Of a stretch of DNA of 64,000 nucleotides, positions 1,169 through 60,571 are shown piece by piece. The DNA comes from Candidatus Saccharimonadales bacterium. GTDB taxonomy: Bacteria > Patescibacteriota > Saccharimonadia > Saccharimonadales > EFPC-124. Both the position numbers and the translations under genes were made by a program. Under the pieces are notes generated by a model that made no database searches, was not told where the DNA came from, and saw only the letters and a list, made by a program, of their open reading frames with translations. Position 1 is the first letter of the stretch; each line of letters starts with the position of its first letter. The DNA lies in the NCBI GenBank assembly GCA_035457485.1, contig DATIBO010000006.1, positions 690,659 through 754,658 on the forward strand, written 5' to 3'.

Positions 1169-2446
1169 CTACTGCGCCTTGGCTGGATCTTCTCCGCGAC
1201 TAATTTGGTCTGCTATTTTTGCCTCACCTTTTTTAGCAGATTTACGCGCTAATATTGCAAACGGAACCGCTAACGCAATAATTCCGCCGGCAAGTATGTA
1301 TGAAGTAGAGTAACTCCAAATATCTGCGGCTTTACCAAGCAATGGTTGAGCTACAACGCCACCGCCAGAGCCCAATAAAGAGTCGAAAGACAAAACCGTG
1401 GCACGCTGCTTTGACGGAATAAGGCCATTTATGTAGGCTTGGCGCGCAGGAATGGTGGAGGCAAACGCGAGCCCCCATAAAACAACTAGGCCAATTGCTG
1501 CCCAAAAATTGGTTATTAGGCCGATTAAAACCAAGACCACGGCACTTAGAGTAATTCCTGTCACTAAAATTGTTGTTCGCCGGCTAAAAAACCGCCATAA
1601 CTGAGTTGCAAGCAACCCGCCAGCAATTTGAGCACCGGCTAAAATTGCTGCTGCGAGCCCGGCGATTGCATACGCCTCTTGGTCACCCCATAGCTCTAAC
1701 AGATACGGCTGCAATGCATAAAAGCCGTAGATAGACACACCCATTACAAACGGAGCAGTTAACATTACCCAGCGAACTTGAGGAACCTTTATTCCATATT
1801 TAATAGAATCGTTTAGGATCCTTTTAACTTCTTTAAGAGGGCGTTCACTTTTAACAGGCTTGAATCCCAAATCGCGCATTAACATTAGGGCCAGAACAAA
1901 GGTAACTGCCAAGATTAACGCACGCAGAACGTATGGTACCCCTAAGTTGCTGAGCTGAGCAATTAGGCCTCCACCGAATGAACCAAGCAGCATCGCTATT
2001 CCAGTTACAATTTGACCCTTGGCAAAAATCGTATCTACCTTACCTCTAAAATCGGTTGCATTTAAAGCGTCAACCAACCAAGCCTCTACGGCGCCCGAAA
2101 AAAAGGTAAAACCTAAGCCTAAAAATACTGAAACGGCAGCCCATGCCCAAAACGGTGCTGCAATTTGCCATAGCCAAACATACAAAAGCGTTGAAACTAC
2201 TAGAGTTGCTGAACCAAGTAAAAACGAGAGACGTCTGCCTTTGAGGTCGGCAATTACTCCAGTTGGGACTTCGAATAGTACCATTCCGACAGTGAAAAAT
2301 GCATTAGCCGCGAAAGCCTCAAAATTAGAAAGTCCAGCGTCTAACAAAAATAGCGTATTAACACCCCAGATCAACGAAGCTGCCAAGGTGTTACAGAATA
2401 AAAGAGTTAAAAATGTTCGTTGTACAGCAAGAGATTGGGGATTCAT
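1169..2446 (-). CDS. MFS-family transporter
   Basis: About 12 predicted TM helices and a GVIADLKGRR loop motif typical of MFS. The ORF extends to 2512, but I prefer the ATG at 2446 (MNPQSL..) because it leaves room for divergent promoters with the gene at 2535. Confidence 0.7.
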   Translation of the reverse strand: MNPQSLAVQRTFLTLLFCNTLAASLIWGVNTLFLLDAGLSNFEAFAANAFFTVGMVLFEVPTGVIADLKGRRLSFLLGSATLVVSTLLYVWLWQIAAPFWAWAAVSVFLGLGFTFFSGAVEAWLVDALNATDFRGKVDTIFAKGQIVTGIAMLLGSFGGGLIAQLSNLGVPYVLRALILAVTFVLALMLMRDLGFKPVKSERPLKEVKRILNDSIKYGIKVPQVRWVMLTAPFVMGVSIYGFYALQPYLLELWGDQEAYAIAGLAAAILAGAQIAGGLLATQLWRFFSRRTTILVTGITLSAVVLVLIGLITNFWAAIGLVVLWGLAFASTIPARQAYINGLIPSKQRATVLSFDSLLGSGGGVVAQPLLGKAADIWSYSTSYILAGGIIALAVPFAILARKSAKKGEAKIADQISRGEDPAKAQ

Positions 2447-2534
2447 AAGGTTTATTGTAACATTCGACAGATCATTTATTTGTGATGTTCGGGAATTATA
2501 GCAGCAAAACACAAGTCTAAGATATAATTAGCAC

Positions 2535-3071
2535 ATGCACCAAAGAGCTATTATTTTCCACGGAACTGGCGGCCGCCCCGATGTTTGCTGGTACCCATGG
2601 TTAGCCGAACAACTCACGGCAAACGGCTACGAAGTTGAAGTTCCGTTTTACCCCGAGATTAATCAAGAATCTATAGAAACCTTTGCCCCAAAAGTTTTGG
2701 CCAAACACACAATCAACGAAAGTACAGTTTTGATTGGTCACTCCGGTGGAGCGCCGCTTATTTTAAGCCTCCTTGAGCGTATAGAGTCTCCGGTTAAACA
2801 AGCTATTTTAGTGGCAGGCTATTCCACGCCGCCAAATGCAAACCCAGAGCCTGTTCTGCAAAAAACTTACAACTGGAATAAAATTAAGCAAAATTCTAAA
2901 CAGTTTTACTTTATAAATTCTATTGACGATCCGTACGGCTGCGATGACAAACAAGGAAGGGTGCTTTTTGACAAGCTGGGTGGCAGGCTAATTATCTGCG
3001 ACGAAGGACACTTTGGCTCGCCGGACCAAGAATACAACGATTTTCTTCTATTAAAGCAGCTAATTGTTTAA
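2535..3071 (+). CDS. YdeN/RBBP9-type serine hydrolase (alpha/beta fold)
   Basis: 178 aa. Nucleophile elbow GHSGG, later D and H (DEGHFG). Size and layout match the small Ser_hydrolase family. Confidence 0.6.
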   Translation: MHQRAIIFHGTGGRPDVCWYPWLAEQLTANGYEVEVPFYPEINQESIETFAPKVLAKHTINESTVLIGHSGGAPLILSLLERIESPVKQAILVAGYSTPPNANPEPVLQKTYNWNKIKQNSKQFYFINSIDDPYGCDDKQGRVLFDKLGGRLIICDEGHFGSPDQEYNDFLLLKQLIV

Positions 3072-3084
3072 AGAGACTAGTCTG

Positions 3085-3939
3085 CTATAGCCCCGAAACT
3101 GAATACAGCAAAATTACAGTAATTACGGCTCCCGTAAGCATATTGAGCCAAATGAATCTACGCCAACCACGATTAGCCGATTCGGAGCTTTTATCACTTA
3201 GATTCACAAACGGCAACGCGTTAAATAAATAAATTAAGCTAACCAAGCCTACGACTATAGCAAGTCCGCCTTGAATAATTGTTAAAAAGGCGGCAAGTGC
3301 GTAAAAAGCCACAACCAGCCTTACTGTGTTTTTTGCACCAAAGACGGTTGCGATTGAGGCGATTTTAGCTTGCCTGTCCGGCAAAATATCTTGGACTGCC
3401 CCAAAAGCATGACTGGCTACACCCCACAAAAAGAAGGCGATTATAAATGGCAAGAACTCCGTAAAGTCACCTACTAAGATTGCGGCGTACACCAGCGGGC
3501 CAACAAAATGTATGCTCGAGGTAATCGAGTCCAGAATAGGTCTTTCTTTAAAACGTAGGCCCGGTACGCTATAGGCTATGACAAAAAATAGCAAAACTAC
3601 CAGAGTAAAATTGGAAAGTAAGTCGCCCATAAAAAATAACGCCAGAATAAAAGGTAAGTTGGATGCAATAGCGACCCAAAACACAGTTTTATGAAGCTTT
3701 TTGTTTAAAATTGCGCCTTCTATGCCGCCTTTTCGGGGGTTGCGGATGTCGGACTCATAATCAAAAATGTCGTTTAGTCCATACATTAATAGATTGTATG
3801 GAACCAAAAAGTATAATGTGACAATTACTAGTAGCCAGTTAAATCCTCCAGTTGCAAATAAGTAGCCGGCAAAAAATGGGTAGGCCGTGTTTACCCAAGA
3901 GATCGGTCGCGATGAGAGTATTATTTGTTTTAGGTTCAT
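3085..3939 (-). CDS. crtEb: UbiA-superfamily prenyltransferase, lycopene-elongase-like (CrtEb/LyeJ type)
   Basis: 284 aa, polytopic. Asp-rich motif NDIFDYESD. Last gene of the crt operon, with a 4-nt overlap with the upstream cyclase subunit. Confidence 0.6.
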   Translation of the reverse strand: MNLKQIILSSRPISWVNTAYPFFAGYLFATGGFNWLLVIVTLYFLVPYNLLMYGLNDIFDYESDIRNPRKGGIEGAILNKKLHKTVFWVAIASNLPFILALFFMGDLLSNFTLVVLLFFVIAYSVPGLRFKERPILDSITSSIHFVGPLVYAAILVGDFTEFLPFIIAFFLWGVASHAFGAVQDILPDRQAKIASIATVFGAKNTVRLVVAFYALAAFLTIIQGGLAIVVGLVSLIYLFNALPFVNLSDKSSESANRGWRRFIWLNMLTGAVITVILLYSVSGL

Positions 3940-4232
3940 ATTTTAAATTTAACCTCTAAAATTTTCCATGTACAGACTACAAAGAACAGGGCAAAGATCG
4001 TGTAACTAAAGTCTTCGAGTGGCGCTAATCCGATAAACACACCTAAGATTTTACTAATATCATAATTCACAATGTTTGCGTAAATTATTAAGCTGTCAAA
4101 GATTATTGTTAGCAAAAGTAGTACGACAAGTGCGACGAGGACCACCTTCCAATTTATCAGTTTGCGAGTATAAAAAACTAGTACTGCCAACGTCAGTAAA
4201 AAGGGAAGACATATTATTAAGTACGTTGCCAT
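3936..4232 (-). CDS. lycopene cyclase domain protein, small subunit (CrtYf/CrtYd-like)
   Basis: 98 aa, 3 TM helices, PLEDFSY-type motif. Paired with a second ~100-aa subunit, as in heterodimeric carotenoid cyclases. Confidence 0.6.
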   Translation of the reverse strand: MATYLIICLPFLLTLAVLVFYTRKLINWKVVLVALVVLLLLTIIFDSLIIYANIVNYDISKILGVFIGLAPLEDFSYTIFALFFVVCTWKILEVKFKI

Positions 4233-4531
4233 TTTTGCTCCAAAAATCTATAACTAACTAGCGATATGTAAGATAGATTTATTAAAAACAGAACTTCTTC
4301 GACAGGGAAGTGTGGAAGCAAAAATATACCAGTTGTAAACCATGATGGCCCTTCAAAAAATATGCCGAGTTTTATTCCTAAAATGTCCCAAACTGCAAGT
4401 AGTAGTACACTTAACAGAATTACGATTGCAGTGCGTCTGGGGTTGTTAAAAAAGGCCAGTTTTAATCTATAATCTATCAACAAAAAATTAACTAAAACTA
4501 TGCTTAACGTCAAAAGGTAGATAAATCTCAC
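4217..4531 (-). CDS. lycopene cyclase domain protein, small subunit (CrtYe/CrtYc-like)
   Basis: 104 aa, 3 TM helices, FPVEEVLF motif (the PxE(E/D) motif of lycopene cyclase domains). Overlaps the crtI stop by 4 nt. Confidence 0.6.
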   Translation of the reverse strand: MRFIYLLTLSIVLVNFLLIDYRLKLAFFNNPRRTAIVILLSVLLLAVWDILGIKLGIFFEGPSWFTTGIFLLPHFPVEEVLFLINLSYISLVSYRFLEQKWQRT

Positions 4532-6006
4532 GCAAACTCCTTAGCAATTCGATCTGCCACGAGCTCAGCGCTGATTAAGCACATTGGCAAACCGATACCA
4601 GGCAAAGTGCCGCCACCAACATAAAACAAATTGTTGAGCTTCTTGCTTTTTATACTTGGCCTAAAAATTGCGCTTTGTCCTAAAGTGTGGGCCATACCCA
4701 GAGCAGTACCGTTCCAAGCGTTGAATTTTGCAGCAAAATCGCCCGGACCGAATAGTCTTTTAAATACAATTCTTTTTTTAAAATCGGGAACGTCAACTAC
4801 TTTAGCGATTTTGCCTAGGTATATGTCGGCGAATTTTTCAATGTTTTCGTTGCTCGCTTTGGCAGGCAGTGGTACGAGAACAAAAACGTTCTCGTGATTT
4901 TTTGGCGCCAGCGATCTGTCGGTTTGAGTTGGTTTGCAAATGTACATAGAGGCATTTTTTGGCCACGTTTTTTGATTAAAAATATGATCGAAGTTTTGAC
5001 GCCATTCGTTTGTAAAAAACAAGTTATGGTGCTGTAATTGTGGCAAGTCTCCTTTTACGCCCAAGTACATCAGCAGCGCAGAAGGGCCGGCCTCGCGGTT
5101 CTGCCAATAACTTTCAGGGTAACTTTGGGAGTTTTTAGGCAAAGCGACTGTTTCGGTAAAATGAAGGTCAGCATTGCTAACAACTAGGTCGGCGTTAAAA
5201 ATTTTGCCATTTTTAAGCCTTACGCCAATGGCCATTTTGTCCTCGACAATTATTTCAGAGATTGGCGAATTGTAATTTAACTTCGCCCCGTTTTGCAAAG
5301 CAAGTCGTTCGATCGCTGCTATTAGCGAATAAATTCCGTTTTTTGGGTAAAAAACACCTTGTTTAAAATCTAAGTAGCTCATTAAGCTGTAGATTGCCGG
5401 AGCTTTAAATGGGGAAGTCCCCAGAAAAACCATTGGATATTCCAAGATTTGTTGCAAGGGCTGGCTATTAACAAATTTCGACGCGTAGTCGTTTAAAGTC
5501 GTGGTCGCCAAATAAGCTAATCTGTGTGCATTTTTTAGGATCGTAGGGTGTGCGAGCGTCTTCTTATCTGTAAAGTCATTGTACAAAAAATGTTGTAGCG
5601 CTATTTTGTATGTTTGTTCGGCAGACTGAACGTAGTTCTCAAGGCTCGCACCCGCTCCTTGTTCAACGCCTTCAAACATTTCGCTGTCCTGTTTTAAATC
5701 GCCGGTAACCGTAAGTGGTGCATTGTTTTCGTAAAAGACCTTATAAGCCGGAGTCAGGCGTTGCAAATTTAAAAGTTCATCAGCCGAGTGACCAAAAAAA
5801 CTAAAATAACGCTCAAAAACTTCCGGCATTAAATACCACGACGGCCCAGTGTCGAATGTAAAACCTTTTTCCTTAAGCAAGCCTGCACGGCCACCTGCAC
5901 GATCCAGAGCTTCAAAAACTTCAATCTCATAACCCCTTTTGGCTAGCAAGGCGGCCAAACCCAAACCGCCAATTCCGGCACCGATTATTATAATTTTTTT
6001 AGACAC
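4528..6006 (-). CDS. crtI: phytoene desaturase
   Basis: 492 aa. N-terminal FAD fold IIIIGAGIGGLGLAALLAKRGYEIEVFEALDRAGGRAG, C-terminal GGGTLPGIGLP. Confidence 0.85.
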   Translation of the reverse strand: MSKKIIIIGAGIGGLGLAALLAKRGYEIEVFEALDRAGGRAGLLKEKGFTFDTGPSWYLMPEVFERYFSFFGHSADELLNLQRLTPAYKVFYENNAPLTVTGDLKQDSEMFEGVEQGAGASLENYVQSAEQTYKIALQHFLYNDFTDKKTLAHPTILKNAHRLAYLATTTLNDYASKFVNSQPLQQILEYPMVFLGTSPFKAPAIYSLMSYLDFKQGVFYPKNGIYSLIAAIERLALQNGAKLNYNSPISEIIVEDKMAIGVRLKNGKIFNADLVVSNADLHFTETVALPKNSQSYPESYWQNREAGPSALLMYLGVKGDLPQLQHHNLFFTNEWRQNFDHIFNQKTWPKNASMYICKPTQTDRSLAPKNHENVFVLVPLPAKASNENIEKFADIYLGKIAKVVDVPDFKKRIVFKRLFGPGDFAAKFNAWNGTALGMAHTLGQSAIFRPSIKSKKLNNLFYVGGGTLPGIGLPMCLISAELVADRIAKEFA

Positions 6007-6835
6007 GCCTGAAGTTTTCTTTAACCATTGTTGTTACAAGTAGTGAAATCTTGCTGTGATCGGGAATTCTAATTCGCTCACTTAACAGTTTTTCGACCGG
6101 GCTAGATTCAATCTTATTCAATAAAGCTAAATAATAATTATAGGCTGTCATGACCGCTGGTCTCACTTTGCGTGGCAATTTAAGCAGACCTATGTGTGCA
6201 TTTTTAAAATCTTTTTTAATATCGGCAATTATCTGATCCTTTTGTTCTTCAGTAATTCTACTCAAATTCACCCCGGGGAAATAAGACCGATGCAGCTCAC
6301 TGACGTCCTGTTTAATGTCGCGTAAAAAATTAACCTTTTGAAATGCCGCACCTAAACTTTGTGCGTATGGCAAAAGTTCGTAATAGTGTTTATCGTCGCC
6401 ATTGCAAAAAACTCGCAAACACATTAAACCGACAACCTCGGCCGAGCCGTGAATATATTTTTGATACTGAGTTTTAGAATAAGCGCCAGTTTTATCTACA
6501 TCCATACGCATACTGGCAAAAAATGGCTCGACAATTTGCTTGTCTATACCAAACTTTTTGGCAGATAGAGCAAATGAGTTAACAATTAAATTGGGGCTGT
6601 ATTGGCGAGTTGTCGATATATATGTCTCATGCTCGAGATCGTTTAAAAGTTCGAGCATATCGGCGCCACGATATGTATCGACAATTTCGTCGGCCAGTCT
6701 AACGAGCCCATAAATATTGTATATATGCCGGCGCATTGCTCTTGGTAAAAGCTTAATTGCAATTCCAAATGAAGTTGAATACGCTTTGGTTAAAGCCTGG
6801 CTGGCGGACTGACTAACACTGTTATAAGTATCCAC
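5999..6835 (-). CDS. crtB: phytoene synthase (squalene/phytoene synthase family)
   Basis: 278 aa, GTG start. YSTSFGIAIKLLP.., Asp-rich LADEIVD and FLRDIKQD motifs. 8-nt overlap with crtI. Confidence 0.85.
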   Translation of the reverse strand: MDTYNSVSQSASQALTKAYSTSFGIAIKLLPRAMRRHIYNIYGLVRLADEIVDTYRGADMLELLNDLEHETYISTTRQYSPNLIVNSFALSAKKFGIDKQIVEPFFASMRMDVDKTGAYSKTQYQKYIHGSAEVVGLMCLRVFCNGDDKHYYELLPYAQSLGAAFQKVNFLRDIKQDVSELHRSYFPGVNLSRITEEQKDQIIADIKKDFKNAHIGLLKLPRKVRPAVMTAYNYYLALLNKIESSPVEKLLSERIRIPDHSKISLLVTTMVKENFRRV

Positions 6836-6873
6836 AAAAAAACAATCCTAAGTTTGTTAGCATTGTTAAAATT

Positions 6874-6902
6874 ATATTATCTAAGTGCAGTTTTGCCTAC
6901 AA
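6874..6902 (-). promoter_or_regulatory. candidate sigma-70-type promoter of the crt operon
   Basis: The minus strand reads TTGTAG-17 nt-TAATAT, about 40 nt upstream of the crtB GTG. Pattern match only. Confidence 0.3.
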
Positions 6903-6972
6903 GTTGCTGTACTTTTTAATACCAACAAGCACGGGCACAAAATAGCGCGACGGTAGCGGAAAAACTTGGCGA

Positions 6973-7197
6973 TTATCGCACCCCGATACAATAATCGCTT
7001 TCTCCTTCGCGGCCCCCGCTGCGATCTGACAAAGCCTTGATTATCTGCCGGGCCGGTTCGGTTAAATAGTCAAACCAGCAAGTAGCGTAAAATGACTGTT
7101 CTTTATCTGATATGCGTAACTGGTCGGTTTTATAAAGGTCGGTTTTTGAGGCAGCATTGCGTTGGCGCAGGTCGTAAACTCCTAGGTCAAAAAACAC
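6973..7197 (-). CDS. hypothetical 74-aa protein (possibly a gene remnant)
   Basis: ORF only. No recognisable motif and no clear SD. Confidence 0.2.
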   Translation of the reverse strand: MFFDLGVYDLRQRNAASKTDLYKTDQLRISDKEQSFYATCWFDYLTEPARQIIKALSDRSGGREGESDYCIGVR

Positions 7198-7232
7198 ATT
7201 CTTGTCTTTTTTTATACCAACCTCGGTCGCAA

Positions 7233-7787
7233 TTAAGGTGTCTTTTTTAATAAAAGGCGCTCGTTCACATTGAACGTCCTACTATCATCAACCTGGGGCT
7301 CAGGCAGTTGATTTGCGTAGGTCACAAATTGTGGCGTTAACGTAGCTAGGTGATCAAACCTAAACATAACTCCACATGAGTCGATGAAATCAAACAAATA
7401 CTGCACTTCGCCGTCTTGAATGTATCGAGAGGCTCGATACAAATATCCATCGCGAACCGTATGCACATCTAACTGATTATCCGTGGCGTTGCCCACGGCA
7501 AGGCCTCCATGCGGTTTAAAATCGCCGCCGCGCACTTGTCCCGGCAATAAAACGGAGTCGACCTTATTCGGATCAACTGGCGAGTTTAAAGTGAGCGGTT
7601 CCTCACAAGCTGGCGGATTGCCCGAAGCTTGCCAGTTTTCGCCACCAAAACTCCATTCGACGTAACCCTTTGAATCTGGACTCAAAACATTATTTTTGCT
7701 CAAAATCCACCAAGCTCCAGCACCGATAAGAACAAAAATAACTACAATAATCAAAATCTCAATCAAAGCAAAACCGCGTTGTTCCAT
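7233..7787 (-). CDS. prepilin-type N-terminal cleavage/methylation domain protein (type IV pilin-like)
   Basis: N-terminus MEQRG|FALIEILIIVVIFVLIG is a class III signal (G-F-x-L-I-E) followed by a hydrophobic helix. Confidence 0.75.
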   Translation of the reverse strand: MEQRGFALIEILIIVVIFVLIGAGAWWILSKNNVLSPDSKGYVEWSFGGENWQASGNPPACEEPLTLNSPVDPNKVDSVLLPGQVRGGDFKPHGGLAVGNATDNQLDVHTVRDGYLYRASRYIQDGEVQYLFDFIDSCGVMFRFDHLATLTPQFVTYANQLPEPQVDDSRTFNVNERLLLKKTP

Positions 7788-7853
7788 AACTTTAATCTTA
7801 CAAGCTTTATAAAATCATAACAATAAGGCTTATGCCTTGGGTTTGACGTTACC

Positions 7854-8321
7854 CTAGTTTAAAAGAGCAACTGCAATGTTTAATAAAGTTGCAAAACTAA
7901 CCCATAGAACATATGGGAATAGCATGTAAGCTGCCGACTTGCTAATTGGCCAAAATACATAAATATTACCGATGATCGCGGCAAGAAGCAAAATAATGAC
8001 TACTACACCTGCCCAGGGTGCTTGCAATCCAAAGAACACCAACGACCACAGAACGTTAAGCGCAAGTTGAAACCCAAAAATAATAAAGGCTAATTTTTTT
8101 GGTTTTTTGTACGGTGCGGTCCATACAAGATACAAGCTCAACCCCATCAGTAAATACAAAATTGTCCATACAGGAGCAAAAAGCCAGTTAGGTGGACTAA
8201 AAAAAGGTTTGGCGAGCGTGGCATACCAAGTAGGAATGTTGGCCGACGTAGCCACACTGCCGATCGCTGCGGCAGAGAAGGTAATCAATACTGACGCGAC
8301 AAACTTAGTAAGCTTAATCAT
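7854..8321 (-). CDS. tspO: TspO/MBR tryptophan-rich sensory protein (CrtK homologue)
   Basis: Five TM helices. WYATLAKPFFSPPNWLFAPVWTILYLLMG is the family signature. The ORF runs to 8354, but the ATG at 8321 gives the usual ~155 aa. Confidence 0.8.
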   Translation of the reverse strand: MIKLTKFVASVLITFSAAAIGSVATSANIPTWYATLAKPFFSPPNWLFAPVWTILYLLMGLSLYLVWTAPYKKPKKLAFIIFGFQLALNVLWSLVFFGLQAPWAGVVVIILLLAAIIGNIYVFWPISKSAAYMLFPYVLWVSFATLLNIAVALLN

Positions 8322-8371
8322 AACAAAATTATAGCATGCGACTCCGCTAGACAATAAACCTAGGGGTTGTT

Positions 8372-10738
8372 CTAGTTATTCCACTGCCAATCACGAACCT
8401 CAGGCATATCTATCCCATGTATTTTTATATAATCCGCATGCTCAAGCAGCTTTTTCTGCATGAGCTGTTTGAGTTCCTGAGCCCCTTCCCCTGTAATACC
8501 AGCATAGTCTATGGCGTCAATTACCAAACGAAAACGATCCATATCGTTACGCACCGTCATGTCGAACGCAGTCGTAATAGTGCCTTCCTCTTTATAACCG
8601 CGCACGTGCAAGTTGCGGTTGGCACGGCGGTAGGTTAAGCGATGAACCACCCATGGGTATCCGTGGAACGCAAAAATGATCTGTTTGTTCTTTGTGAAGA
8701 GTGTGTCGTAGTCGGCATCGCTAAGTCCGTGGGGGTGCTCTGTATCGGGTTGCAATCTCATAAGATCAACCACGTTTACAACGCGAATTTTAAGCTGCGG
8801 CAAATGCTCGCGGAGAATAGATACGGCTGCAAGTGTTTCTAACGTAGGAACATCGCCAGCGCAAGCCATTACTAGATCTGGTTCCGAACCGTCATCATTG
8901 CTCGCCCAATCCCAAACACTTGCGCCTTTCGTGCAATGATCAATCGCCTCATCCATCGTGAGCCATTGAGGGCTGTTGTGTTTGCCGGTAATAGTCAGAT
9001 TTATATAATTACGACTCTTCAAACAGTGGTCAATCGTAGAAAGCAAGGTATTTGCATCCGGCGGCAGGTAAATGCGCACCATCGAGGCTTTTTTATTAAG
9101 CAAGTGATCGATAAAACCAGGGTCTTGATGTGTAAATCCGTTATGGTCTTGCCGCCAAACATGCGAGGTTAACAGGTAATTTAACGAAGCTATCGGGTGA
9201 CGCCATGGCAGTTCGTTGCTCATTTTAATCCACTTAGCATGTTGATTAACCATGGAGTCGACAATGCGAATAAAGGCCTCATAGCTATGGAAAATACCGT
9301 GCCTACCTGTTAAAAGATAGCCTTCTAGCCATCCCTGATCCTGGTGCTCACTAAGCATAGAATCCAGCACAGAGCCACTTGCCGCTAAGTGCTCATCGGT
9401 TGGTTTTATTTCAGCCGACCACTGCCGATCGGTCACTTCAAAAACAGCTTCGAGCCGATTAGAGACAAGTTCGTCTGGACCGAATATTCTAAAGTTATGA
9501 TGCGTTTGATTTTGTTTAACAACGTCACGCAAGAATGGACCTAACGCATGAACATTACCTTCGTTAGTAGCGCTTCGGTGTTCCAACTTAACCGCGTAAT
9601 CACGAAAGTCAGGCAGATCAAGTTCACGCAAGAAACCGCCACCGTTTGCATGCGGATTGGCTCCCATGCGATACTTACCAGTTGGCGCAAGTTCAGCCAG
9701 CTCTGGTAGTAATTTACCGTTTTGATCAAACAGTTCTTCTGGTTTATAACTTTTGAGCCACTGCTCCAAAACAACCAGGTTTTCAGGATGATCAGTATCA
9801 ACAGTAAGCGGAACTTGATGAGAACGGAAATTATTCTCGACTTGCTTGCCATCGATGGTTTTTGGACCAGTCCAACCTTTTGGAGAATTAAGAATAATCA
9901 TCGGCCAACGAGGTCGGGTCATATCGTTACCTTCGCGGGCTTCAGCTTGGATCTGCTTGATTTCTTTGACAACTTCATCGAGTTTAGACGCCATAAGCTG
10001 GTGCATCTGCATTGGGTCATCGCCCTCCACAAAATACGGAGTCCAGCCATAACCCCTAAACAATTGATCTAATTCGTCGCGATCAATCCGCGCCAATATT
10101 GTTGGGTTACTAATTTTGTAGCCGTTGAGGTGCAAAATAGGCAGCACGGCGCCGTCAGTTTTTGGATTAATAAATTTATTTGAATGCCAAGCGGTAGCCA
10201 GCGGTCCGGTTTCAGCCTCGCCATCTCCAACGACACAAGCAGTAATTAGATCAGGGTTATCGAATACCGCACCAAAGGCATGACTTAGCGAGTATCCAAG
10301 CTCGCCGCCCTCATGAATTGAGCCAGGCACTTGCGGCGAAACATGACTAGACAAACCACCCGGGAACGAAAACATCTGGAACAATTTTTTAAGCCCAGCT
10401 TCATCCTGTGTAACTTTAGGATAATAGTCGGTAAACGTTCCCTCTAGGTACACGTTGCCGACCACCGCCGGACCGCCGTGACCCGGACCCGAGATATAAA
10501 TCATATTCAAGTCGCGCTCTTTAATTACTCGGTTTAAATGAGCATAGATAAAGTTCTGACCAGGAGTAGTACCCCAATGTCCTAACAGCAACTTTTTTAT
10601 GTGCTCAAGCCTTAATGGTTGCTTAAGAAGCGGATTGTCACATAAGTAAATTTGCCCGACAGACAAGTAATTTGCAGCGCGCCAATAGGCGTCAATATTA
10701 TAAAGCGTCTTAGCGTCTAATGGGTTATTGGGGTTCAT
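8372..10738 (-). CDS. xfp: xylulose-5-P/fructose-6-P phosphoketolase
   Basis: 788 aa. Motifs [16 protein letters not shown] and GDGEAETGP (TPP-binding). Confidence 0.9.
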
Positions 10739-11903
10739 GAGCGCCTTTCATCTTTAAAAGTTGGCTGGCTTCGCGCGCAATAGTAACCGATTCTTCGGTA
10801 TGAATCACGTATGCGCCGACTTTTGCGCCGTCAACCGATATTAAGCGTGCATTTTGCCGGTTGCGAGCTTCGTCTAGTGTGACACCTATAAAACCAAGCT
10901 CTTCACATATCCTCGATCTAATTTTTGGAGCATTTTCGCCGATACCGCCAGTAAACACAAGTGTGTCGAGTCCACCAAGTGCCGCCGCAAAACCACCTAT
11001 ACTTTTTTTGACTTGGTAGCAAAATATTTCTACGGCGTCTTTAGCGCGACTATCTTCGGCCTCAATCTCGAGCAATTTTTTCATATCTGCCGTCGTCTCC
11101 GAGATACCCAGTAGTCCCGATTCAAAGTTGACCATACGGCTAAATCTTTTAGCATCGTATCCTTCAGCTCGGGAGAGATATAAAGCTAAGCCCGGATCAA
11201 GATCACCCGAACGAGTGCTCATTGGAATGCCCGAAGCTGGCGTCATGCTCATTGTAGTATCAATCGGTTTTGAGTTTTCCAAAGCCGTGAGGCTAGCACC
11301 GTTACCTAAATGAGCAATTATAACCCTTCCATCTGCAATGTTTTCGCCCTCAACACGCCGGAGTTCTTCTAAAATATAGGCGTACGACAAACCATGAAAA
11401 CCATAACGCCGTATGCCTTTCGCTTCGAGATGGCGGGGGATCGGCAAAATTCGTGAGCGTGATGGTAAGTCGTGGTAAAACGCTGTATCAAAACAAAGCA
11501 CCTGCAGAGCTTGCGGCAGTAAACTTTGAAAAACCTTAACAAGCTCTAACTCCGTCGGTAAGTGATCGGGGCTAAAAGCTGTAAGTTTTTGCAATTCCTT
11601 TAGTACGTTGTTCGTTGCAATTTGCGCTTGGTAATAGCTTGGCCCGCCATTCACAATTCTATGACCAACCGCGACAATACTGCCAAAATTCACCTGGGGC
11701 TCAAGCCAACTGGTTAATAACTTAACTGCGTCTAAGTGATTATTTGCAGTGACCAGCTTTTTCGCGCTGGAAGTTACTAAACTTGCCGAGGATCCAATAT
11801 TTTCGACTGTGGCTTCTAGGATTTTACGATCGGCCAAAAATAGGCCGAGCTTAACACTAGATGAACCTCCGTTAACCGTCAGAATATATTGGTCACTTTT
11901 CAT
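10725..11903 (-). CDS. ackA: acetate kinase
   Basis: Motifs [34 protein letters not shown] use the ATG at 11903 (MKSDQYIL..). The longer ORF to 12110 overlaps the divergent VKOR gene and adds a non-homologous N-terminus. Confidence 0.85.
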
Positions 11904-12035
11904 AAATCTTACGCTTATTATACCCTCATATCTTAATTGTATGAAATAGCCCGATAAAGCGTAGCTAATTTCACACTCATAGGCTGTGATTTTAGTCACA
12001 GGCACACAACAAGTTTGTGTATATAATTTAAACCC

Positions 12036-12602
12036 ATGATTAAACCAAGAACAATATACGGCATTATGACAACCGGAGGCGTCATTGGCGCAATAGCCGC
12101 CTTTTTGCAAACAACCGAAAAAATACAGCTGCTTAAAAACAAAGATGCGATTTTGGCTTGCGACTTAGGTAGTATATTTAGTTGCTCAGATGTGTTGAGC
12201 GCCTGGCAAAGTTCTGTTTTTGGGTTCCCAAACTCATTAATGTGCATGACCTTGTTTACAATTTTTGCTGCCACTGCGCTAGTGGGGTTGAGCGGCGGGG
12301 TTTTGCCCAAAAAGTTACGACTAAGCATACATGCACTATCTTTATTTACGCTGGGTTTTGCCTTGTGGTTTTTAACACAGAGTATTTATGTTATTAACGC
12401 GCTTTGCATACTCTGTATTTTTTGTTTCGTCGGCTTGTTGCTGGTAAATTGGAGCTGGTTACGACTCAACGCCGCAGATTTACCGATTGGCGAGCGAGGT
12501 CGTGCCCTCATAAAAAGATTAGTGGCACGCGATATCGACACGCTTGCGTGGATTCTACTCACTTTAGCAATGGCGCTCGCGATGTTTACGCGTTTTTATT
12601 AA
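12036..12602 (+). CDS. vitamin K epoxide reductase (VKOR) family membrane protein
   Basis: 188 aa, 4-5 TM helices. Loop Cys pair CDLGSIFSC and TM CxxC (CILC). Confidence 0.7.
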   Translation: MIKPRTIYGIMTTGGVIGAIAAFLQTTEKIQLLKNKDAILACDLGSIFSCSDVLSAWQSSVFGFPNSLMCMTLFTIFAATALVGLSGGVLPKKLRLSIHALSLFTLGFALWFLTQSIYVINALCILCIFCFVGLLLVNWSWLRLNAADLPIGERGRALIKRLVARDIDTLAWILLTLAMALAMFTRFY

Positions 12603-12608
12603 ATCCGT

Positions 12609-13259
12609 TTATAATTCCTCGCCCAAGGCGGCCTCGAGTCGCCGCAAATCATTAATTAAAATTCCACCATTAGCAACCTTTATAAGACCTGCTACTTTTA
12701 GTTCTTGAATGCGTCGGCTGACGGTCTCACGCACTAGGCCGGAGTGGCGAGCAAGGTCATTCTCGTTAAGATTGATCAACACTGAGCCATCGATTTGCGG
12801 CTCGCCAAAGCGGTAGGCGACGTTAAGTAGTTCGAATATAAGTCGACTTCGAGCGCTGCCACCCATTAGGTGAGTCATGCGCCTTAACACGCCGTCAACG
12901 CCACGATACACGCGAGCCAACAGATCGAATAAAATATCAGGTTCATTATGCAAAAAGCGAACAACGTCGGCTTTTGGCGCAACGCGTACAGTCGTTTTTA
13001 GGCTTGCTTCAAAAAAGTAATAGTTTTTAACCTCATTAATAGCCGAGGACATCGGGAAAAACGCCCCGGGCTTAAACACATTAACTACAACTTCGTTGCC
13101 GTTTGGCGCAATATCATACTGGCTAACACGACCATCGACTAGGTAAAAGACTGATTGTATAGGATCATCCGCGCGCAACAATAACTCTCGCTTGTCAAAC
13201 GACTGCGATGGGTAATTTTCAAAAAATAATCTGACTTTATCTTTAATATCCATGCGCAT
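12609..13259 (-). CDS. Crp/Fnr-family transcriptional regulator
   Basis: 216 aa. N-terminal cNMP-binding-like beta-roll and C-terminal HTH (LARHSGLVRETVSRRIQELK). Confidence 0.75.
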   Translation of the reverse strand: MRMDIKDKVRLFFENYPSQSFDKRELLLRADDPIQSVFYLVDGRVSQYDIAPNGNEVVVNVFKPGAFFPMSSAINEVKNYYFFEASLKTTVRVAPKADVVRFLHNEPDILFDLLARVYRGVDGVLRRMTHLMGGSARSRLIFELLNVAYRFGEPQIDGSVLINLNENDLARHSGLVRETVSRRIQELKVAGLIKVANGGILINDLRRLEAALGEEL

Positions 13260-19738: not shown

Positions 19739-20914
19739 CTAAGAATACAAAAAATCGCGCGTCAGAGGTAGGTTATTTTGTGGTCCTTTTGTAAAAACGT
19801 ACTGGCCCAAATCAAGCTCGCCATACCGAAATCCGGCTGCCGAACTCGCCAACCAAAGGTGCCAAGTCCTGTAAAAACGCTCATCAAACTTTTTAATAAC
19901 CACCGGGCGATGCGTTTCATACCGCTTCATCCATTCTTCTAATGTCATTGCGTAATGAATGCGCAAATTTTCGTAGTCGATAAGTCGAAAATTATAGGCC
20001 GGAAACGCTTGCACAATTTCACGATTTGAAGGAAGATATCCGCCAGGGAAAATATATTTATCTATCCACGGATCAACAGGCAATTCGGTCTGCTGAGTTA
20101 TGGTGTGGAGTAAAGAAACGCCTTCAGGTTTTAGCATTGCATCGATAGCGCGGTAGTAGTCATTGTGGTTACCCTGGCCAACATGCTCGAACATACCAAC
20201 GCTAACAATTCGGTCGAACATAAGACCACGGCTAGGTAACTCTTGGTAATTTGCGAGTTCAAACGTAACCCTGTCTGACACCTTTGCTTGCTCTGCCGCT
20301 TCGCGCGCGTGTGCAAGCTGTTCTTCACTTAACGTGACACCGTGTCCAACAATTCCGTATTTTTTTGCTGCAGTAATAAGAAGAGTACCCCAGCCCGAGC
20401 CAATATCGAGCAACGTTGAGCCCTTTTGTAGTTGCAACTTCCGTAAGATGTAATCAACTTTTCGAGCCTGCGCGGTTTCGAGTGTGTCGTTCTCGGTTTT
20501 AAAATATGCGCAACTATATGTAAGGCTTTTATCGAGCCACAGCTTATAAAAATCGTTGCCCAGGTCGTAGTGATGAGCAATGTATGATTTCTGTTTGCTC
20601 TGAATATTCTTACGAACTGTTACCTTACGCAGCGCTTTACTTAGTGCAGCGAAGGCTTTCTGGTTTTCAGCCACCAAGCGTGCAATGTTTCTAAGGTCGC
20701 CGGTGACCTCGATCGATCCATCGCTGTATGACTCACCAAAGCCCAATGACATATTTTTAAAAATTGCTCTAATTACTTTGGGGCTTTTTATATGCAAATG
20801 AAAGTATGGCTCTGTCGGACCAAAAGTGAACGAATCGCCGTCCCAATACGTTACGCCAACGCCACCATGGCGTATCTTGCCTAAGAGGGAATTAAGCAGT
20901 TGTTTTTCAATCAT
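19739..20914 (-). CDS. cfa: cyclopropane-fatty-acyl-phospholipid synthase family SAM methyltransferase
   Basis: 391 aa. SAM motif LLDIGSGWGTLL plus the family-typical HYDLGNDFYKLWLD and EHVG. Confidence 0.75.
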   Translation of the reverse strand: MIEKQLLNSLLGKIRHGGVGVTYWDGDSFTFGPTEPYFHLHIKSPKVIRAIFKNMSLGFGESYSDGSIEVTGDLRNIARLVAENQKAFAALSKALRKVTVRKNIQSKQKSYIAHHYDLGNDFYKLWLDKSLTYSCAYFKTENDTLETAQARKVDYILRKLQLQKGSTLLDIGSGWGTLLITAAKKYGIVGHGVTLSEEQLAHAREAAEQAKVSDRVTFELANYQELPSRGLMFDRIVSVGMFEHVGQGNHNDYYRAIDAMLKPEGVSLLHTITQQTELPVDPWIDKYIFPGGYLPSNREIVQAFPAYNFRLIDYENLRIHYAMTLEEWMKRYETHRPVVIKKFDERFYRTWHLWLASSAAGFRYGELDLGQYVFTKGPQNNLPLTRDFLYS

Positions 20915-25926: not shown

Positions 25927-27207
25927 CTAGGATCTAGGCTCTTCATCCAATTCGGCGAACTTTGCGGCCATAGTAGGATTGCCGCGAGTAAGCCGTTTAA
26001 TGGTCAAATCTTCAGCCTTATTATTGGCAAGTCGGAGGTTATTCTCCGAAGATAGTAAGGCATCTTTCGTCTTTTGCAGATGATCGATTGTCTTATCTAT
26101 TTCATCAATGGCCGTTTTAAACTTACGGCTGGCAAGATCGTAATTACGGGCAAACCCTTCTTTGAACTGGTTCATATTCTCTTCAAAGTTGGTGATGTCG
26201 ATGTTTTGGGCTTTAACCAGAGCAAGTTCTGATTTGTATTTGAGGGAGTTCATCGCCGCGTTACGCAGCAATGTGATTATAGGAATAAAGAATTGAGGAC
26301 GGATAACATACATCTTCGGGAACCTGTGCGACATATCGACGATACCAGAATTGTAGAACTCGCTATCAGCTTCAAGTAAAGATACGAGCACGGCGTACTC
26401 GCATTTCTTTTCAATCCGATCTTTGTCAAGTTCACGCAAAAAGTCTTCGTTTTTGTGCTTCGTAGCAGTTTCGTCGCCCTCGTTTTTCATTTCAAACATA
26501 ATAGAGATGACTTCATTGCCAGCTTCATCGGTTTCACGATAGATGTAGTCACCCTTGCTACCGGATTTTGCGTCATTGTCTTTCTCAAAATAAGCGTTCT
26601 GAAAACCAGTGGCGCGTAATTTGTTGAACTCGGTTTCACAGTGTTGTTCTAAAGTCTCACCAACCATCTTGGTCGAGAGTCTAGCTTTCATATCTTTGCG
26701 CAGTTCAATTTCTTCATCTTTGAGCTTGATGATGTCGTCTTTAGTTTTGAGCTCAGCGGTAAACTTTTCCTTGAGGGAGGTTTCAAGCAATTGTTTTTCG
26801 GTGTCTTTGTGCTTGAGTTCGTGGGCTAGTTCGTCGCGCTCCTTCTCGACCTTATTGACCGCCTCAGTAACTGCGAGTCTTCTCTCAGTCTCAGCAGATT
26901 CAACCATTGCTTGGAGACGAGCTATTTCAGCATCCTTCTCGGCCTTAAGCTCATTTACCAATGAGTCGCGTTGAGCTTTAAGTTCTGCGAGCTCGGCGTC
27001 CTTCTTGGATACTTCTGTTTGCAGTTCATTTTTAGTATTAGCTTCCGCAAGTTTGACAGCGTTTTCCTTATCTTTCTCCATCATCTCAATGCGGTCGAAA
27101 AGCTCACGTTCAAACTCATGATCGCGTACTTGCTTTAAGATGTCGGCAAAACCTGCTTCATCTACTTTAAAAGCTTTTTTACAGTGGGGACAAATAATTT
27201 CGTTCAT
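25927..27207 (-). CDS. DUF2130-type protein: N-terminal CPHC zinc knuckle, long coiled coil, C-terminal PD-(D/E)XK-like domain
   Basis: 426 aa from the ATG at 27207, 4 nt after the upstream stop. [13 protein letters not shown], then ~200 aa rich in E/K/L heptads, then [17 protein letters not shown] (a D..ExK pattern). Confidence 0.7.
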
Positions 27208-27211
27208 TAGT

Positions 27212-29107
27212 TTATTTCTCTCTGACTTTTTCAAATATTTTCTTTATTGTTTCAGGTATATCAGACTTATCGGTTATTACCGCCTGAAGCACACCTGCCA
27301 GCTCGTCACCTTTTCTGGGTAGAAAATTGATGCGTGTTTGATCTTGATTATCTGCCGCGACAAAATCTCCAAGCTGCTTATGAAGCTTTGTGCTCGCTGT
27401 ACTAACATCTATGTTTGCACGCATGGCGTCAATTTCGGTACCCGTTATAGATACGCCACATATATCCTTTAATATTTGTATCCATATGCCATTAGGAAGC
27501 TCGTCCTCGAAATCACTGATAGCGCCGAGCAGGAAAACTTTATTACTTTCGGATTTACCTGAATCTCGATCAAAAACGTATACTACATTTGCGTCCAGCT
27601 TCCGGAAGTCTTTAAAGATATCATTAACGAGCTGTTCAAAATTACCGGAGTTATCTTTACTGCGCAAATTTAAAAGCTGAATACCATCGCTCAGCATTGA
27701 GTGCCCGTAAACTAACTTGTAAAAATAGTCAAAAATTCCATATTCCGTCGGACCTTCAACAGCAATAAATTTGTCATAAAAAAGAAAATCGCTATTTCTA
27801 ACGCCAAGACTATCAAAGATATCTTCCGTGCTGTTCGTTGATTCAATCACGGTGTATCCGTCTTGTAATGAAACCTTATTTATATCGCGCAATGCAGTTC
27901 TATCAACAAAGAGGGTGGAATGCGTACTAACTACTATTTGAAATGAGTTGGCCGCCATGCTGCTTAGTATTTCCGCTAACTCACGCTGAGCAACTGGATA
28001 CAGGTGAGTTTCTGGCTCATCAAAACACCAGATATAACGTTTTTCACCATCTTCTTTGATTGCTTCGTCTGCTCTTGCCTTAATTAAGCCGAACCAGATT
28101 TGGCGTCGAATTCCGTCCCCTTGTTCATCGATATGGATAGCTTTATCGCTCGTGGTTTTATTGACGAACAATTCCGTGACAGCATGATTTACTTTAATAT
28201 CCACATTAGTACTAAGACCGGATAGGCTTGCAGGCAAGGAAGCTTTATATTTCTCGAATATGCTCTCCAGGGATGTGTTGGCTTTAGCGTTAATTGCTTC
28301 TTTCTTCGTGGTTACATCGTTGATGATTTCTTCGAGCGCTGCCTTGACTATAGGGCTGATCACATCTGCAGTTAGTTGGTTTAGTTCGTCAGTAGTGATA
28401 TTCCAGTCAAGATATCTGTACTCCGGAAACAGGATACGGTCTTTCTTGTAGTCAAATCTTGCCCAGGTTGGCTGAGTTGTGTCGCTTGAGTATATTGCTT
28501 GAACGCGCTCGGTGTTAGTGGGCTTGCCGGTATTATTCCGGTTTAGTATGGAGGCATTATCGATACCTTTTGCTTTTTGGATTGCGGTAAGGTCTGCTGC
28601 TGTTTTTAACCACAACGCCAGGGGCTGTCCCTCTTTATCCAAGCTATCCTCAGTAAGCGCAAAGTATTCATCTTTAGCACCGGTGGAAGTGATGACGCGC
28701 ATAACATAGAGCTTGTCACCAATAGCTTTGTCACTCAGCAAGAATTGTGCATGTCGCGACAGTTTATCTAGCTCATCATCTTTGTAGTCTTTATCTATCA
28801 CGAACTCTGCAACCAAACATACTTGTGTTCGGTCATACGCATCAGGTTCTGGGATTCCAATATCTGTGAAAACGCTTGTAAATTCTTCTTCTGTCAAAGG
28901 CGTATTTGATAATGTACGCTTTTTGGTACTGTCTCCATCGAAGTAGACTTTGGAATTTTCATCAAAGAAGAGGCGCATGCCATTTAGAATGGTTGATTTG
29001 CCGCAGTCATTAGCGCCAATCATAGTAACTGGCTGCCCGTCCTTTAACTCAAGCTGTACATTCTTGGCGCTTTTGTAGTTTAGAATGAATAATTTTGTAA
29101 GCTTCAT
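27212..29107 (-). CDS. OLD-family nuclease: ABC-type ATPase fused to a Toprim domain
   Basis: 631 aa. Walker [10 protein letters not shown], signature-like QGDGIRRQ, Walker [16 protein letters not shown]-loop VVSTHS, Toprim Glu [11 protein letters not shown], Dx[10 protein letters not shown]. Confidence 0.85.
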
Positions 29108-56384: not shown

Positions 56385-56467
56385 CCTATACTTTTTGTGC
56401 AAAATATTATATAGTATGTAAGCTCTAAGAGTACCTTTTAGCTTTGTCCTACATTGGAGGTGGCTCC

Positions 56468-57418: not shown

Positions 57419-57621
57419 AAGGCTGCGCCCGCAAACCCCATAAAAAGGGTCACTGCGGGCGCAAAAGCCCATGAAATTATTTAACAGATCATAATTATTT
57501 GCTAACAGAGGTGTATTTATGTACATAATCATTGCTTTTTTAACATAAACATGTTATAGTATTTATCACGTTGGAGGGTAACCCTACTCTTCGACAGAAA
57601 CTTCCCATCTGAGGAGACATT

Positions 57622-58155: not shown

Positions 58156-58225
58156 GTCTCCTCGTTGGCCGCGAGCGCCCTGGCACCCGCCTAGGCGCTC
58201 GCGGAAACGAGCCTAAAATTATTCA

Positions 58226-60524: not shown

Positions 60525-60571
60525 GAGATTAAGTGTAGCAAACTTTACCCAAAACGGGTTAAAATAGCAAT

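Follow-up and report, generated by a model that had tools for sequence, protein, structure and literature searches.

What carotenoid, if any, would a bacterium of the Candidatus Saccharimonadales, with a genome of approximately 0.9 Mb (45% GC), make from a five-gene crt cluster that has no gene for its precursor beside it? Corynebacterium and Micrococcus make 50-carbon yellow pigments by this type of operon, a known kind that has barely been described for this phylum. The cluster lies in a 64,000-nucleotide stretch of DNA (hereafter the window, meaning the whole stretch analysed) from a metagenome-assembled genome (MAG), and its elongase gene is on an 889-kb Saccharimonadales contig. It probably represents, at about three chances in four, the actinobacterial-type cyclic C50 pathway in a version native to Saccharibacteria, organised as one translationally coupled five-gene unit with its own promoter. 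The operon first noticed from the sequence is confirmed; the operon type, the elongase, the cyclase domains and the absence of crtE stood in the present analysis, but the link to TspO/CrtK and the view that pigment synthesis is exceptional did not.

A five-gene operon and its upstream region

The identities of the genes and the anatomy of the operon are shown by the present analysis. On the minus strand, positions 3085-6835 hold five ORFs, for CrtB, CrtI, two lycopene-cyclase-domain subunits of ~100 aa and a UbiA-family prenyltransferase. The crtB gene of the phytoene synthase family (5999-6835, 278 aa, GTG start) is overlapped by 8 nt by the phytoene desaturase gene crtI (4528-6006, 492 aa), which is followed, with overlaps of 4, 16 and 4 nt, by the genes for a crtYe-like subunit of a heterodimeric carotenoid cyclase (4217-4531, 104 aa), a crtYf-like second subunit (3936-4232, 98 aa) and a crtEb-like lycopene elongase (3085-3939, 284 aa). 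These coordinates reproduce the overlaps of the original prediction, and stops and starts overlap similarly in C50 operons that have been characterised (PMC6393565). The gene families recognised by HMMs, in the same order as in C. glutamicum, likewise agree with the crtB-crtI-crtYe-crtYf-crtEb type that had been proposed. The genes are as long as their homologues, and the encoded proteins keep every catalytic motif and invariant residue, which, like the overlaps, points to function. The operon is also AT-rich, as had been remarked: its GC content is 40.3% versus 44.8% for the window, the second lowest value among 241 windows of equal size.

The promoter-like element TTGTAG-17-TAATAT, previously pointed out before crtB, exists in the sequence, and the scan favours an overlapping register 3 nt downstream, TAGGCA-17-TATAAT (6899-6871, minus strand; 10 of 12 matches), whose end lies 36 nt before the crtB start codon and which has the joint best score across positions 2400-8800 (6.4 kb scanned). 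This site is a consensus match only, of a kind that is common (20 found versus 12.8 expected). A terminator-like hairpin (6969-6998, minus strand; 13-bp stem followed by a T-run), likewise a consensus match only, closes the upstream gene at its 3′ end and would shield the crt operon from upstream transcription. This strong hairpin and a frameshifted pilin-like gene stand between crtB and a TspO/MBR-family gene (7854-8354, minus strand). The TspO gene is real (Pfam, 156 bits), yet its closeness to the operon is not conserved: the 24 other Saccharibacteria loci all lack a TspO over a distance of 8-10 kb from the operon. Given the intervening elements and this distribution, the gene is near the operon but not judged a member, and the suggested TspO/CrtK association is not supported.

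Precursor supply and the integrity of the operon

No GGPP synthase was found in the window by a motif scan, tblastn with the CrtE of three relatives gave nothing better than E = 0.18, and none was found in the precomputed Pfam annotation of matching contigs, which covers ~1-41 kb and ~49-64 kb of the window plus ~10 kb past its left end; the reported absence thus holds. The source contig also has no member among the best 120 homologues (50-93% identity) of the nearest relative's CrtE. A GGPP-synthase gene heads the operon in 11 of the 14 Saccharibacteria relatives with sufficient upstream DNA, and its usual position is here occupied by the frameshifted pilin-like gene and the terminator. Because an adjacent crtE is also missing from three Saccharibacteria loci (L021, L023 and L038) and from several Actinobacteria, e.g., Rhodoluna, an operon without crtE beside it is tolerated. 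The gene was lost secondarily here and in a few other genomes; the lineage as a whole does not lack it. With crtE lost from the head of the operon, GGPP would have to be supplied by a different prenyl synthase encoded elsewhere in the genome, or from an extracellular source.

The same loss could have turned the operon into a remnant, decaying or silent, that is deprived of substrate and not yet burdened with disabling mutations. The presence of crtE in most of the comparable loci and the lack of an operon-type crtE from this contig among the best homologues are consistent with such decay, as is the frameshift in the pilin-like gene, which implies that the region has seen disruption. However, the five ORFs are full length and keep every family-invariant residue together with the coupled overlaps, a promoter-like site lies immediately upstream, and crtE is equally non-adjacent in the loci named above, so that a remnant is an unlikely explanation.

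Enzymes, predicted product and origin

The chemistry of a working cyclic C50 pathway can be predicted from the homologous systems of Corynebacterium, Micrococcus and Dietzia, which have been reconstituted. CrtB would convert two GGPP to phytoene and CrtI phytoene to lycopene; the CrtEb-like UbiA enzyme would then add a DMAPP-derived C5 unit to each lycopene end to form an acyclic C50 intermediate, and the heterodimer of ~100-aa subunits would cyclise both ends. The product is most likely a cyclic C50 carotenoid with an epsilon, gamma or beta ring, types that are not distinguishable by sequence; both this product and an active pathway in this cell are inferred.

CrtB matches Pfam SQS_PSY (140 bits), reaches no equivalog cut-off among the NCBIfam models and is assigned at the family level only; its translation shows the motifs DEIVD and DIKQD, and it shares 44-51% identity with the crtB products of other Saccharibacteria operons. 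CrtI scores 507 bits on TIGR02734 crtI_fam (cut-off 238). Both small subunits pass the lycopene-cyclase-domain model TIGR03462 (cut-off 39.4), as anticipated, with thin scores barely over the cut-off (47.6 bits for the Ye-like and 40.7 for the Yf-like subunit); Pfam PF18916 matches the Yf-like subunit alone of the two (32.4 bits). The Ye-like subunit keeps the invariant WD and P-x-EE motifs and the Yf-like subunit FD and P-L-ED. Compared with characterised enzymes (sequences from the supplement of PMC6393565), the former shares 44% identity with CrtYe of C. glutamicum, the same with LbtA of Dietzia and 38% with CrtYg of M. luteus, and the latter 35-37% with CrtYf and 36% with CrtYh. A crude hydropathy scan recovered the three transmembrane segments predicted for each subunit in one of them, and two segments in the other, which gives the prediction only rough support.

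Since neither TIGR03462 nor PF18916 distinguishes C40 from C50 cyclases, and C50 and C40 CrtYc/Yd cyclases are not separable by sequence, the subunits might instead form a CrtYc/Yd-type lycopene beta-cyclase that yields beta-carotene, e.g., as a retinal precursor for rhodopsin, with the UbiA protein doing something else; some Saccharibacteria do have rhodopsins without blh (bioRxiv 10.1101/2022.02.13.480300). This is improbable, because translational coupling ties the UbiA gene to those of the cyclase and its product exceeds the elongase equivalog cut-off, the subunits share 35-44% identity with their characterised C50 counterparts, the genes are ordered as in C50 clusters, and neither rhodopsin nor blh was found in the Pfam annotation of most of the window.

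The prenyltransferase (Pfam UbiA, 94 bits) scores 397 bits on NF009608 (curated cut-off 217), the actinobacterial elongase model: an Arthrobacter cyclase-elongase fusion scores 469 bits on it, versus 103 bits for a haloarchaeal LyeJ orthologue encoded between crtI and cruF (397 bits on NF009516). Over its full length the protein shares 49% identity with the characterised CrtEb of C. glutamicum, 47% with LbtC of Dietzia and 44% with CrtE2 of M. luteus, and the ubiA_proteo model gives only E = 0.003, which places the protein in the lycopene-elongase group, as predicted, and not with quinone or heme prenyltransferases. Its AF2 model (pLDDT 88) has a UbiA fold (TM ~0.7 to 4od4, 4tq4 and 7bpu), and its Asp-rich motifs, N56-D57-x2-D60-x3-D64 and D184-x3-D188, do not vary across 28 homologues.

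These scores also bear on an acyclic C50 (bacterioruberin) pathway of the LyeJ/CrtD/CruF type, as proposed for Lake Baikal Patescibacteria; lyeJ, crtD and cruF matches are reported for Patescibacteria and one Saccharibacteria MAG (PMC9948471). On the CrtID model of haloarchaea, CrtI does reach 546 bits, but the cut-off is 640; the elongase reaches only 139 of the required 205 bits on the LyeJ-type model NF009516 and is ~30% identical to the haloarchaeal LyeJ orthologue; no CruF/Caroten_synth gene was found in the annotated part of the window, and the CruF position is taken by the two cyclase subunits. Such a pathway is very improbable here.

The same operon occurs in at least 24 other Saccharibacteria/Patescibacteria genomes, and the gene order here matches the (idi)-crtE-B-I-Ye-Yf-Eb order of 56 Micrococcales-type and 24 Saccharibacteria loci. 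The operon is common in environmental Saccharimonadales, mostly with its own crtE, contrary to the earlier expectation that pigment synthesis would be exceptional for the lineage. CrtI and CrtB of the window group with the other Saccharibacteria sequences, in a single clade for either protein (200/200 bootstraps), and the GC content of the loci is 40-52% versus a mean of 68% in Actinobacteria, so the operon is native and old, and neither contamination nor a recent transfer. Although the closest cultured relatives are Micrococcales (50-57% identity) and one close homologue carries the label Chloroflexi, mis-assembly or mis-binning of actinobacterial DNA is scarcely credible, contradicted as it is by the operon's composition, the separate Saccharibacteria clade, the position within the 889-kb contig and the identical arrangement in an independent Logan assembly.

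Comparison with known systems

The decaprenoxanthin operon of C. glutamicum, crtE-cg0722-crtB-crtI-crtYe-crtYf-crtEb (PMC3598387, PMC6393565), shares with the window the crtB-crtI-Ye-Yf-Eb order, the small-subunit heterodimeric cyclase and a similar manner of ORF overlap (identities of 49% for the elongase, 44% for CrtYe and 37% for CrtYf). Unlike it, the window has no crtE, no cg0722-like gene and no divergent MarR-type CrtR, and the host is a small Saccharimonadales genome. The Dietzia sp. CQ4 LbtA/LbtBC cluster (C.p.450; 47% to LbtC, 44% to LbtA) and the megaplasmid cluster of Arthrobacter sp. StoSoilB13 (L006; elongase 52%) also have the gene order of the window, but their second cyclase subunit and elongase are fused in frame, whereas here they are separate ORFs with a 4-nt overlap. 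The M. luteus sarcinaxanthin cluster (crtE2-crtYg-crtYh) has the same enzyme families (elongase 44%, subunits 36-38%) but, among the three systems characterised, resembles the window least; its elongase gene precedes the cyclase genes, unlike in the window (PMC6393565). In haloarchaeal crtI/D-lyeJ-cruF clusters, e.g., that of Halarchaeum pCBA1220-01 (L007), a UbiA-family elongase also adjoins a CrtI-family desaturase, but these bacterioruberin genes differ in identity (~30%), in equivalog (NF009516), in having a CruF hydratase instead of a cyclase heterodimer, and in their acyclic product. The six-gene crtE-B-I-Ye-Yf-Eb operons of other Saccharibacteria MAGs (e.g., GW2011_GWC2_48_9, L022; L001, L003 and L004) differ in their first gene, which encodes a 355-aa polyprenyl (GGPP) synthase missing from the window; they are orthologous (elongase identity 53-64%), agree with this operon in gene order and overlaps, and are its true nearest relatives.

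A five-gene carotenoid operon

The five minus-strand genes at 3085-6835 form a compact operon in which successive stops and starts overlap by 8, 4, 16 and 4 nt, as the original prediction had it and as the ORF table also gives, and all of the families proposed for them (phytoene synthase, phytoene desaturase, two lycopene-cyclase-domain proteins and a UbiA prenyltransferase) were recovered in profile searches. The first gene, crtB (5999-6835), matches Pfam SQS_PSY with 140 bits, and crtI (4528-6006) combines a score above the cut-off for crtI_fam (TIGR02734, 507 bits, cut-off 238) with an FAD-binding motif at the N-terminus (NAD_binding_8, 55 bits). The two small genes, which encode a CrtYe-like subunit of 104 aa (4217-4531) and a CrtYf-like subunit of 98 aa (3936-4232), both exceed the cut-off of the lycopene-cyclase-domain model TIGR03462 (47.6 and 40.7 bits, respectively, cut-off 39.4); Pfam PF18916 picks up the Yf-like ORF only, not the Ye-like one. 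The last gene (3085-3939) encodes the CrtEb-like elongase of 284 aa, which matches Pfam UbiA with 94 bits. On the CrtB equivalogs of NCBIfam the window CrtB reaches at most 57 bits against cut-offs of 480-550, and because the CrtB of a bona fide Arthrobacter cluster likewise falls far below these cut-offs, the models are to be regarded as narrow.

The overlaps between the ORFs point to translational coupling, which has also been discussed for characterised operons (PMC6393565). The promoter-like element proposed before crtB, TTGTAG-17-TAATAT, exists in the sequence, but a scan favours a register 3 nt off, TAGGCA-17-TATAAT at 6899-6871. The AT-rich composition is borne out, since the operon has 40.3% GC against 44.8% for the window and is among the most AT-rich stretches of the latter.

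In a scheme modelled on reconstituted C50 systems (PMC3598387; PMC6393565), CrtB would convert two GGPP into phytoene, CrtI would convert phytoene into lycopene, the CrtEb-like enzyme would place one C5 unit from DMAPP on each end of lycopene, and the heterodimer of the Ye- and Yf-like subunits would cyclise both ends. The predicted product is a cyclic C50 carotenoid.

The missing GGPP synthase and the region upstream of crtB

A gene-by-gene look at three relatives shows crtB directly preceded by a polyprenyl synthase of 355-356 aa, homologues of which are annotated by JGI as type II GGPP synthase. Of the 14 other Saccharibacteria loci whose upstream DNA reaches far enough, 11 have this crtE; it is found neither in the remaining three (L021, L023 and L038) nor in the window. 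The original prediction that the window contains no GGPP synthase agrees with a motif scan, with tblastn searches using the CrtE proteins of three relatives, and with Pfam annotation of matching contigs, which over most of the window and about 10 kb beyond its left end contains no polyprenyl synthase, rhodopsin, blh or CruF. Thus a GGPP synthase in or beside crtE-B-I-Y-Eb, as in a complete C50 cluster, is lacking in the window even with about 10 kb to the left included, and no crtE pseudogene remnant lies between crtB and the upstream gene. When the CrtE of the nearest relative was compared with a set of 5.8 billion proteins, none of the best 120 homologues (50-93% identity) came from the source contig, a finding that is no more than suggestive, since a divergent synthase or one of the IspA type would escape the best 120. 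Because the tblastn searches, the Pfam annotation and this homologue search are all negative, the source genome seems to be without an operon-type crtE. An AA_kinase gene at 59811-60686, considered as an isopentenyl-phosphate kinase of the mevalonate pathway, is a UMP kinase (TIGR02075, 246 bits).

Within about 5-8 kb upstream, crtE is also missing from five actinobacterial loci (L043, L051, L062, L081 and L084, Rhodoluna included), as over the same distance from the three Saccharibacteria loci, in one of which (L038) crtB was likewise not detected. Because such loci occur in several Saccharibacteria and Actinobacteria, loss or relocation of crtE has occurred more than once. In the window, the position of crtE is occupied by a pilin-like gene, followed by a terminator-like hairpin and the promoter-like site. 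The pilin-like gene is split between two frames of the minus strand, 7233-7787, which carries the N-terminal methylation motif, and 6973-7197 (74 aa), with the change of frame at about 7197-7235; the two pieces align with one and the same 271-aa protein, encoded in the related locus L003 (positions 1-438), and 6973-7787 is either a frameshifted gene or the site of a sequencing error. The hairpin (6998-6969, minus strand), a consensus match with a 13-bp stem, closes the upstream unit.

The loss of crtE is also the starting point of the main alternative, that the operon is a silent remnant left behind by this loss; all of its genes are, however, intact and conserved, which argues against decay. 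A more far-reaching reading, that the pathway is an ancient, vertically kept Saccharibacteria C50 pathway, sister to that of actinobacterial hosts, in which crtE has been lost in this lineage, selection maintains the other five genes and the pigment is finished from GGPP or a later intermediate not made by an operon-encoded enzyme, is unlikely as a whole, with a probability of roughly one in eight. Under this reading, the precursor might come from a moonlighting prenyl synthase of the FPP/UPP pathway or from material taken up from a carotenogenic host. It would then imply that a lipid-scavenging cell makes a membrane or photoprotective lipid of its own, and that epibiont and host share a pathway.

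The TspO gene said to lie near the operon is real (7854-8354, minus strand, Pfam, 156 bits), but its proposed analogy to CrtK fails. Another gene and the terminator-like hairpin lie between it and crtB, and none of 24 related Saccharibacteria loci has TspO near the operon; membership of the cluster in the manner of Rhodobacter crtK is therefore rejected. Translation of TspO probably begins at an ATG that lies 11 codons downstream of the listed TTG, and the Logan annotation of this DNA (L008, about 2549-3049) calls no gene for the ORF. A TspO homologue does stand beside the crt cluster of an actinobacterial locus, that of Georgenia (L028, 2658-2984).

Directly upstream of TspO are genes for phosphoketolase (1399 bits) and then acetate kinase (8372-12110, minus strand), a pair typical of fermentative Saccharibacteria. 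The acetate kinase gene is adjoined by one for a membrane protein (12036-12602, plus strand) that weakly resembles the VKOR family (28 bits, below cut-off). CRP/FNR-family regulators recur a few kb from Saccharibacteria crt operons, namely at 12609-13259 (minus strand) in the window, at 2648-3313 in locus L001, at 1610-2302 in L004, and as tblastn matches in L017 and L019; in L001 and L004 the regulator is accompanied by a CHASE histidine kinase and a response regulator. These proteins may be regulatorily linked to the crt operons. The window protein matches the model of the Thermus carotenoid regulator LdrP weakly and below threshold (39 bits, cut-off 300). Farther along the minus strand of the window, a homologue of cyclopropane-fatty-acyl-phospholipid synthase (19739-20914, 313-326 bits, below equivalog cut-offs) represents a further enzyme that modifies membrane lipids, in a genome expected to rely on scavenged ones, and a 631-aa OLD-family ATPase/TOPRIM nuclease adjoins a DUF2130 protein (25927-29107), the two looking like an anti-phage defence pair. 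A GC-rich region at about 56000-58200 (53-57% against 45% for the window) has overlapping ORFs on both strands, and its called genes have no Pfam matches.

Elongase and cyclase subunits

The identification of the UbiA-type gene as a C50 elongase is upheld by the profile NF009608, on which its product scores 397 bits (cut-off 217), and the scores on two sister models, NF010119 (166 bits) and the LyeJ-type NF009516 (139 bits, cut-off 205), are both under cut-off. The competing assignment to quinone prenyltransferases was checked as well, and the ubiA_proteo model reaches only E = 0.003. NF009608 and NF009516 were calibrated with two proteins from annotated records: a cyclase-UbiA fusion from an idi-crtE-crtB-crtI-cyclase cluster of an Arthrobacter megaplasmid scores 469 bits on NF009608, and the Halarchaeum prenyltransferase encoded between crtI and cruF, a LyeJ orthologue, scores 397 bits on NF009516 and 103 on NF009608. 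Reference ORFs of the experimentally reconstituted enzymes were taken from the supplement of PMC6393565, and every one translates cleanly. Over its full length, the window elongase is 49% identical to C. glutamicum CrtEb (279 residues, E = 1e-99), 47% to Dietzia LbtC and 44% to M. luteus CrtE2. Both Asp-rich motifs, NDxxDxxxD and DxxxD, which are invariant in the family alignment, are kept, and an AF2 model (pLDDT 88) has a UbiA fold with a TM of about 0.7 to 4od4, 4tq4 and 7bpu; the search of PDB structures with this model confirmed the generic fold and nothing more specific. Because of the NF009608 match, the identities to characterised enzymes, the kept motifs and the fold, the sequence-level outcomes that would have spoken against the original prediction, such as a quinone-type UbiA protein, did not occur. 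The protein is accordingly placed, by sequence, among the CrtEb-type lycopene elongases (NF009608/PRK13105), and its predicted activity is the addition of C5 units to lycopene at C-2 and C-2'.

Two kinds of fusion occur in the elongase family, one joining a cyclase subunit to the elongase as in LbtBC (388-429 aa) and the other joining the elongase to a GT2 glycosyltransferase (534-719 aa; one such protein is named as Saccharimonadales). Fusion proteins were seen among the representatives of the homologue search (P0126, P0127, P0132 and P0152) and at 7659-8858 of L006, the Arthrobacter megaplasmid locus. The second kind suggests that elongation and glycosylation of C50 carotenoids are carried out by one protein in some lineages.

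The cyclase subunits are 35-44% identical to characterised C50 cyclase subunits: the Ye-like subunit is 44% identical to both CrtYe and LbtA, and the Yf-like subunit is 35-37% identical to CrtYf. An invariant Asp and a P-x-E-(E/D) motif are kept in both, the D and E being invariant across 10 subunits. The two ORFs thus appear to fit the pattern of the heterodimeric C50 carotenoid cyclases (CrtYe/Yf, CrtYg/Yh and LbtA/B). Prediction of the ring from identities to these three pairs was tried and abandoned, the epsilon-, gamma- and beta-type values being too close to discriminate.

The small subunits could also be read as a C40 beta-cyclase, but an elongase of equivalog rank is coupled to the cyclase genes and the synteny is of the C50 type. 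A bacterioruberin pathway with LyeJ and CruF was proposed for Patescibacteria of Lake Baikal, in which such genes are described as 'bacterioruberin genes' (PMC9948471). Here, the failure of the LyeJ model, the lack of CruF in the Pfam annotation spanning most of the window and the presence of cyclase subunits all argue against such a pathway, and because the window operon is of the cyclic C50 type, the Baikal assignment may need re-examination. Besides that report, no other account of such genes surfaced when the full texts of the library used were searched for Saccharibacteria or Patescibacteria together with carotenoids, and a study of Saccharibacteria rhodopsins reports no carotenoid-biosynthesis genes in Saccharibacteria (bioRxiv 10.1101/2022.02.13.480300).

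Spread, origin and relation to known C50 systems

The window elongase matches a protein of a Candidatus Saccharimonadales MAG with 100% identity, on a contig of 889,392 bp. The next 119 representatives of elongase clusters are 55-64% identical to it; many lie on contigs of 0.4-1.1 Mb, and several bear the name Saccharibacteria, Saccharimonadales or Patescibacteria. At E <= 1e-10, the UbiA-elongase clades have 816 representatives. When one genome per GTDB species was scanned, at least 600 stretches matched and at least 590 relatives were confirmed, the best 80 of which were retained. These best 80 comprise 24 from Saccharibacteria/Patescibacteria MAGs (53-64% identity; one bears the label Chloroflexi and another 'uncultured bacterium') and 56 from Actinomycetota, mostly Micrococcales (50-57% identity), and nearly all of them share the order (idi)-crtE-crtB-crtI-Ye-Yf-Eb. 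The Saccharibacteria loci have 40-52% GC and the actinobacterial loci a mean of 68%.

In neighbour-joining (NJ) trees, 200/200 bootstraps unite the Saccharibacteria sequences in a single clade, for CrtI as well as for CrtB. In an elongase NJ tree that was rooted on haloarchaeal LyeJ and included the characterised Corynebacterium, Dietzia and Micrococcus elongases, the Saccharibacteria fall outside the group formed by these three and Micrococcales, with weak support (164/300), and they are recovered as a clade in only 31/300, so that their branching order is not resolved. Recent transfer from host to epibiont was considered and set aside on this placement, weak as it is, which bears no sign of recent capture. 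Because of the GC content of the loci, the CrtI and CrtB clades and the LyeJ-rooted tree, the operon is native and old in Saccharibacteria and not contamination; an ancient transfer between the phyla, in either direction, is possible. Mis-binning of the operon into a Saccharibacteria MAG is opposed by its composition and by an independent assembly.

The usual picture of candidate-phyla-radiation bacteria is that they lack most lipid and cofactor biosynthesis and obtain these molecules from their hosts, which for Saccharibacteria are known to be Actinobacteria. In environmental Saccharimonadales, a complete and conserved isoprenoid pigment pathway is widespread, which would imply that the cells spend resources on carotenoids of their own, embedded in the membrane, possibly for photoprotection, as antioxidants or to adjust membrane rigidity. 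The interest of the operon lies in its conservation across a supposedly minimal phylum, in its likeness to that of the host phylum and in the local loss of crtE, the crtE-less variant being a natural experiment on the source of prenyl diphosphates in an epibiont. For pathway engineering, such compact, AT-rich operons offer C50 elongases and cyclases from a new source. In its make-up, the system is a standard C50 cluster of the actinobacterial type, and its pathway is the one characteristic of the host phylum Actinobacteria.
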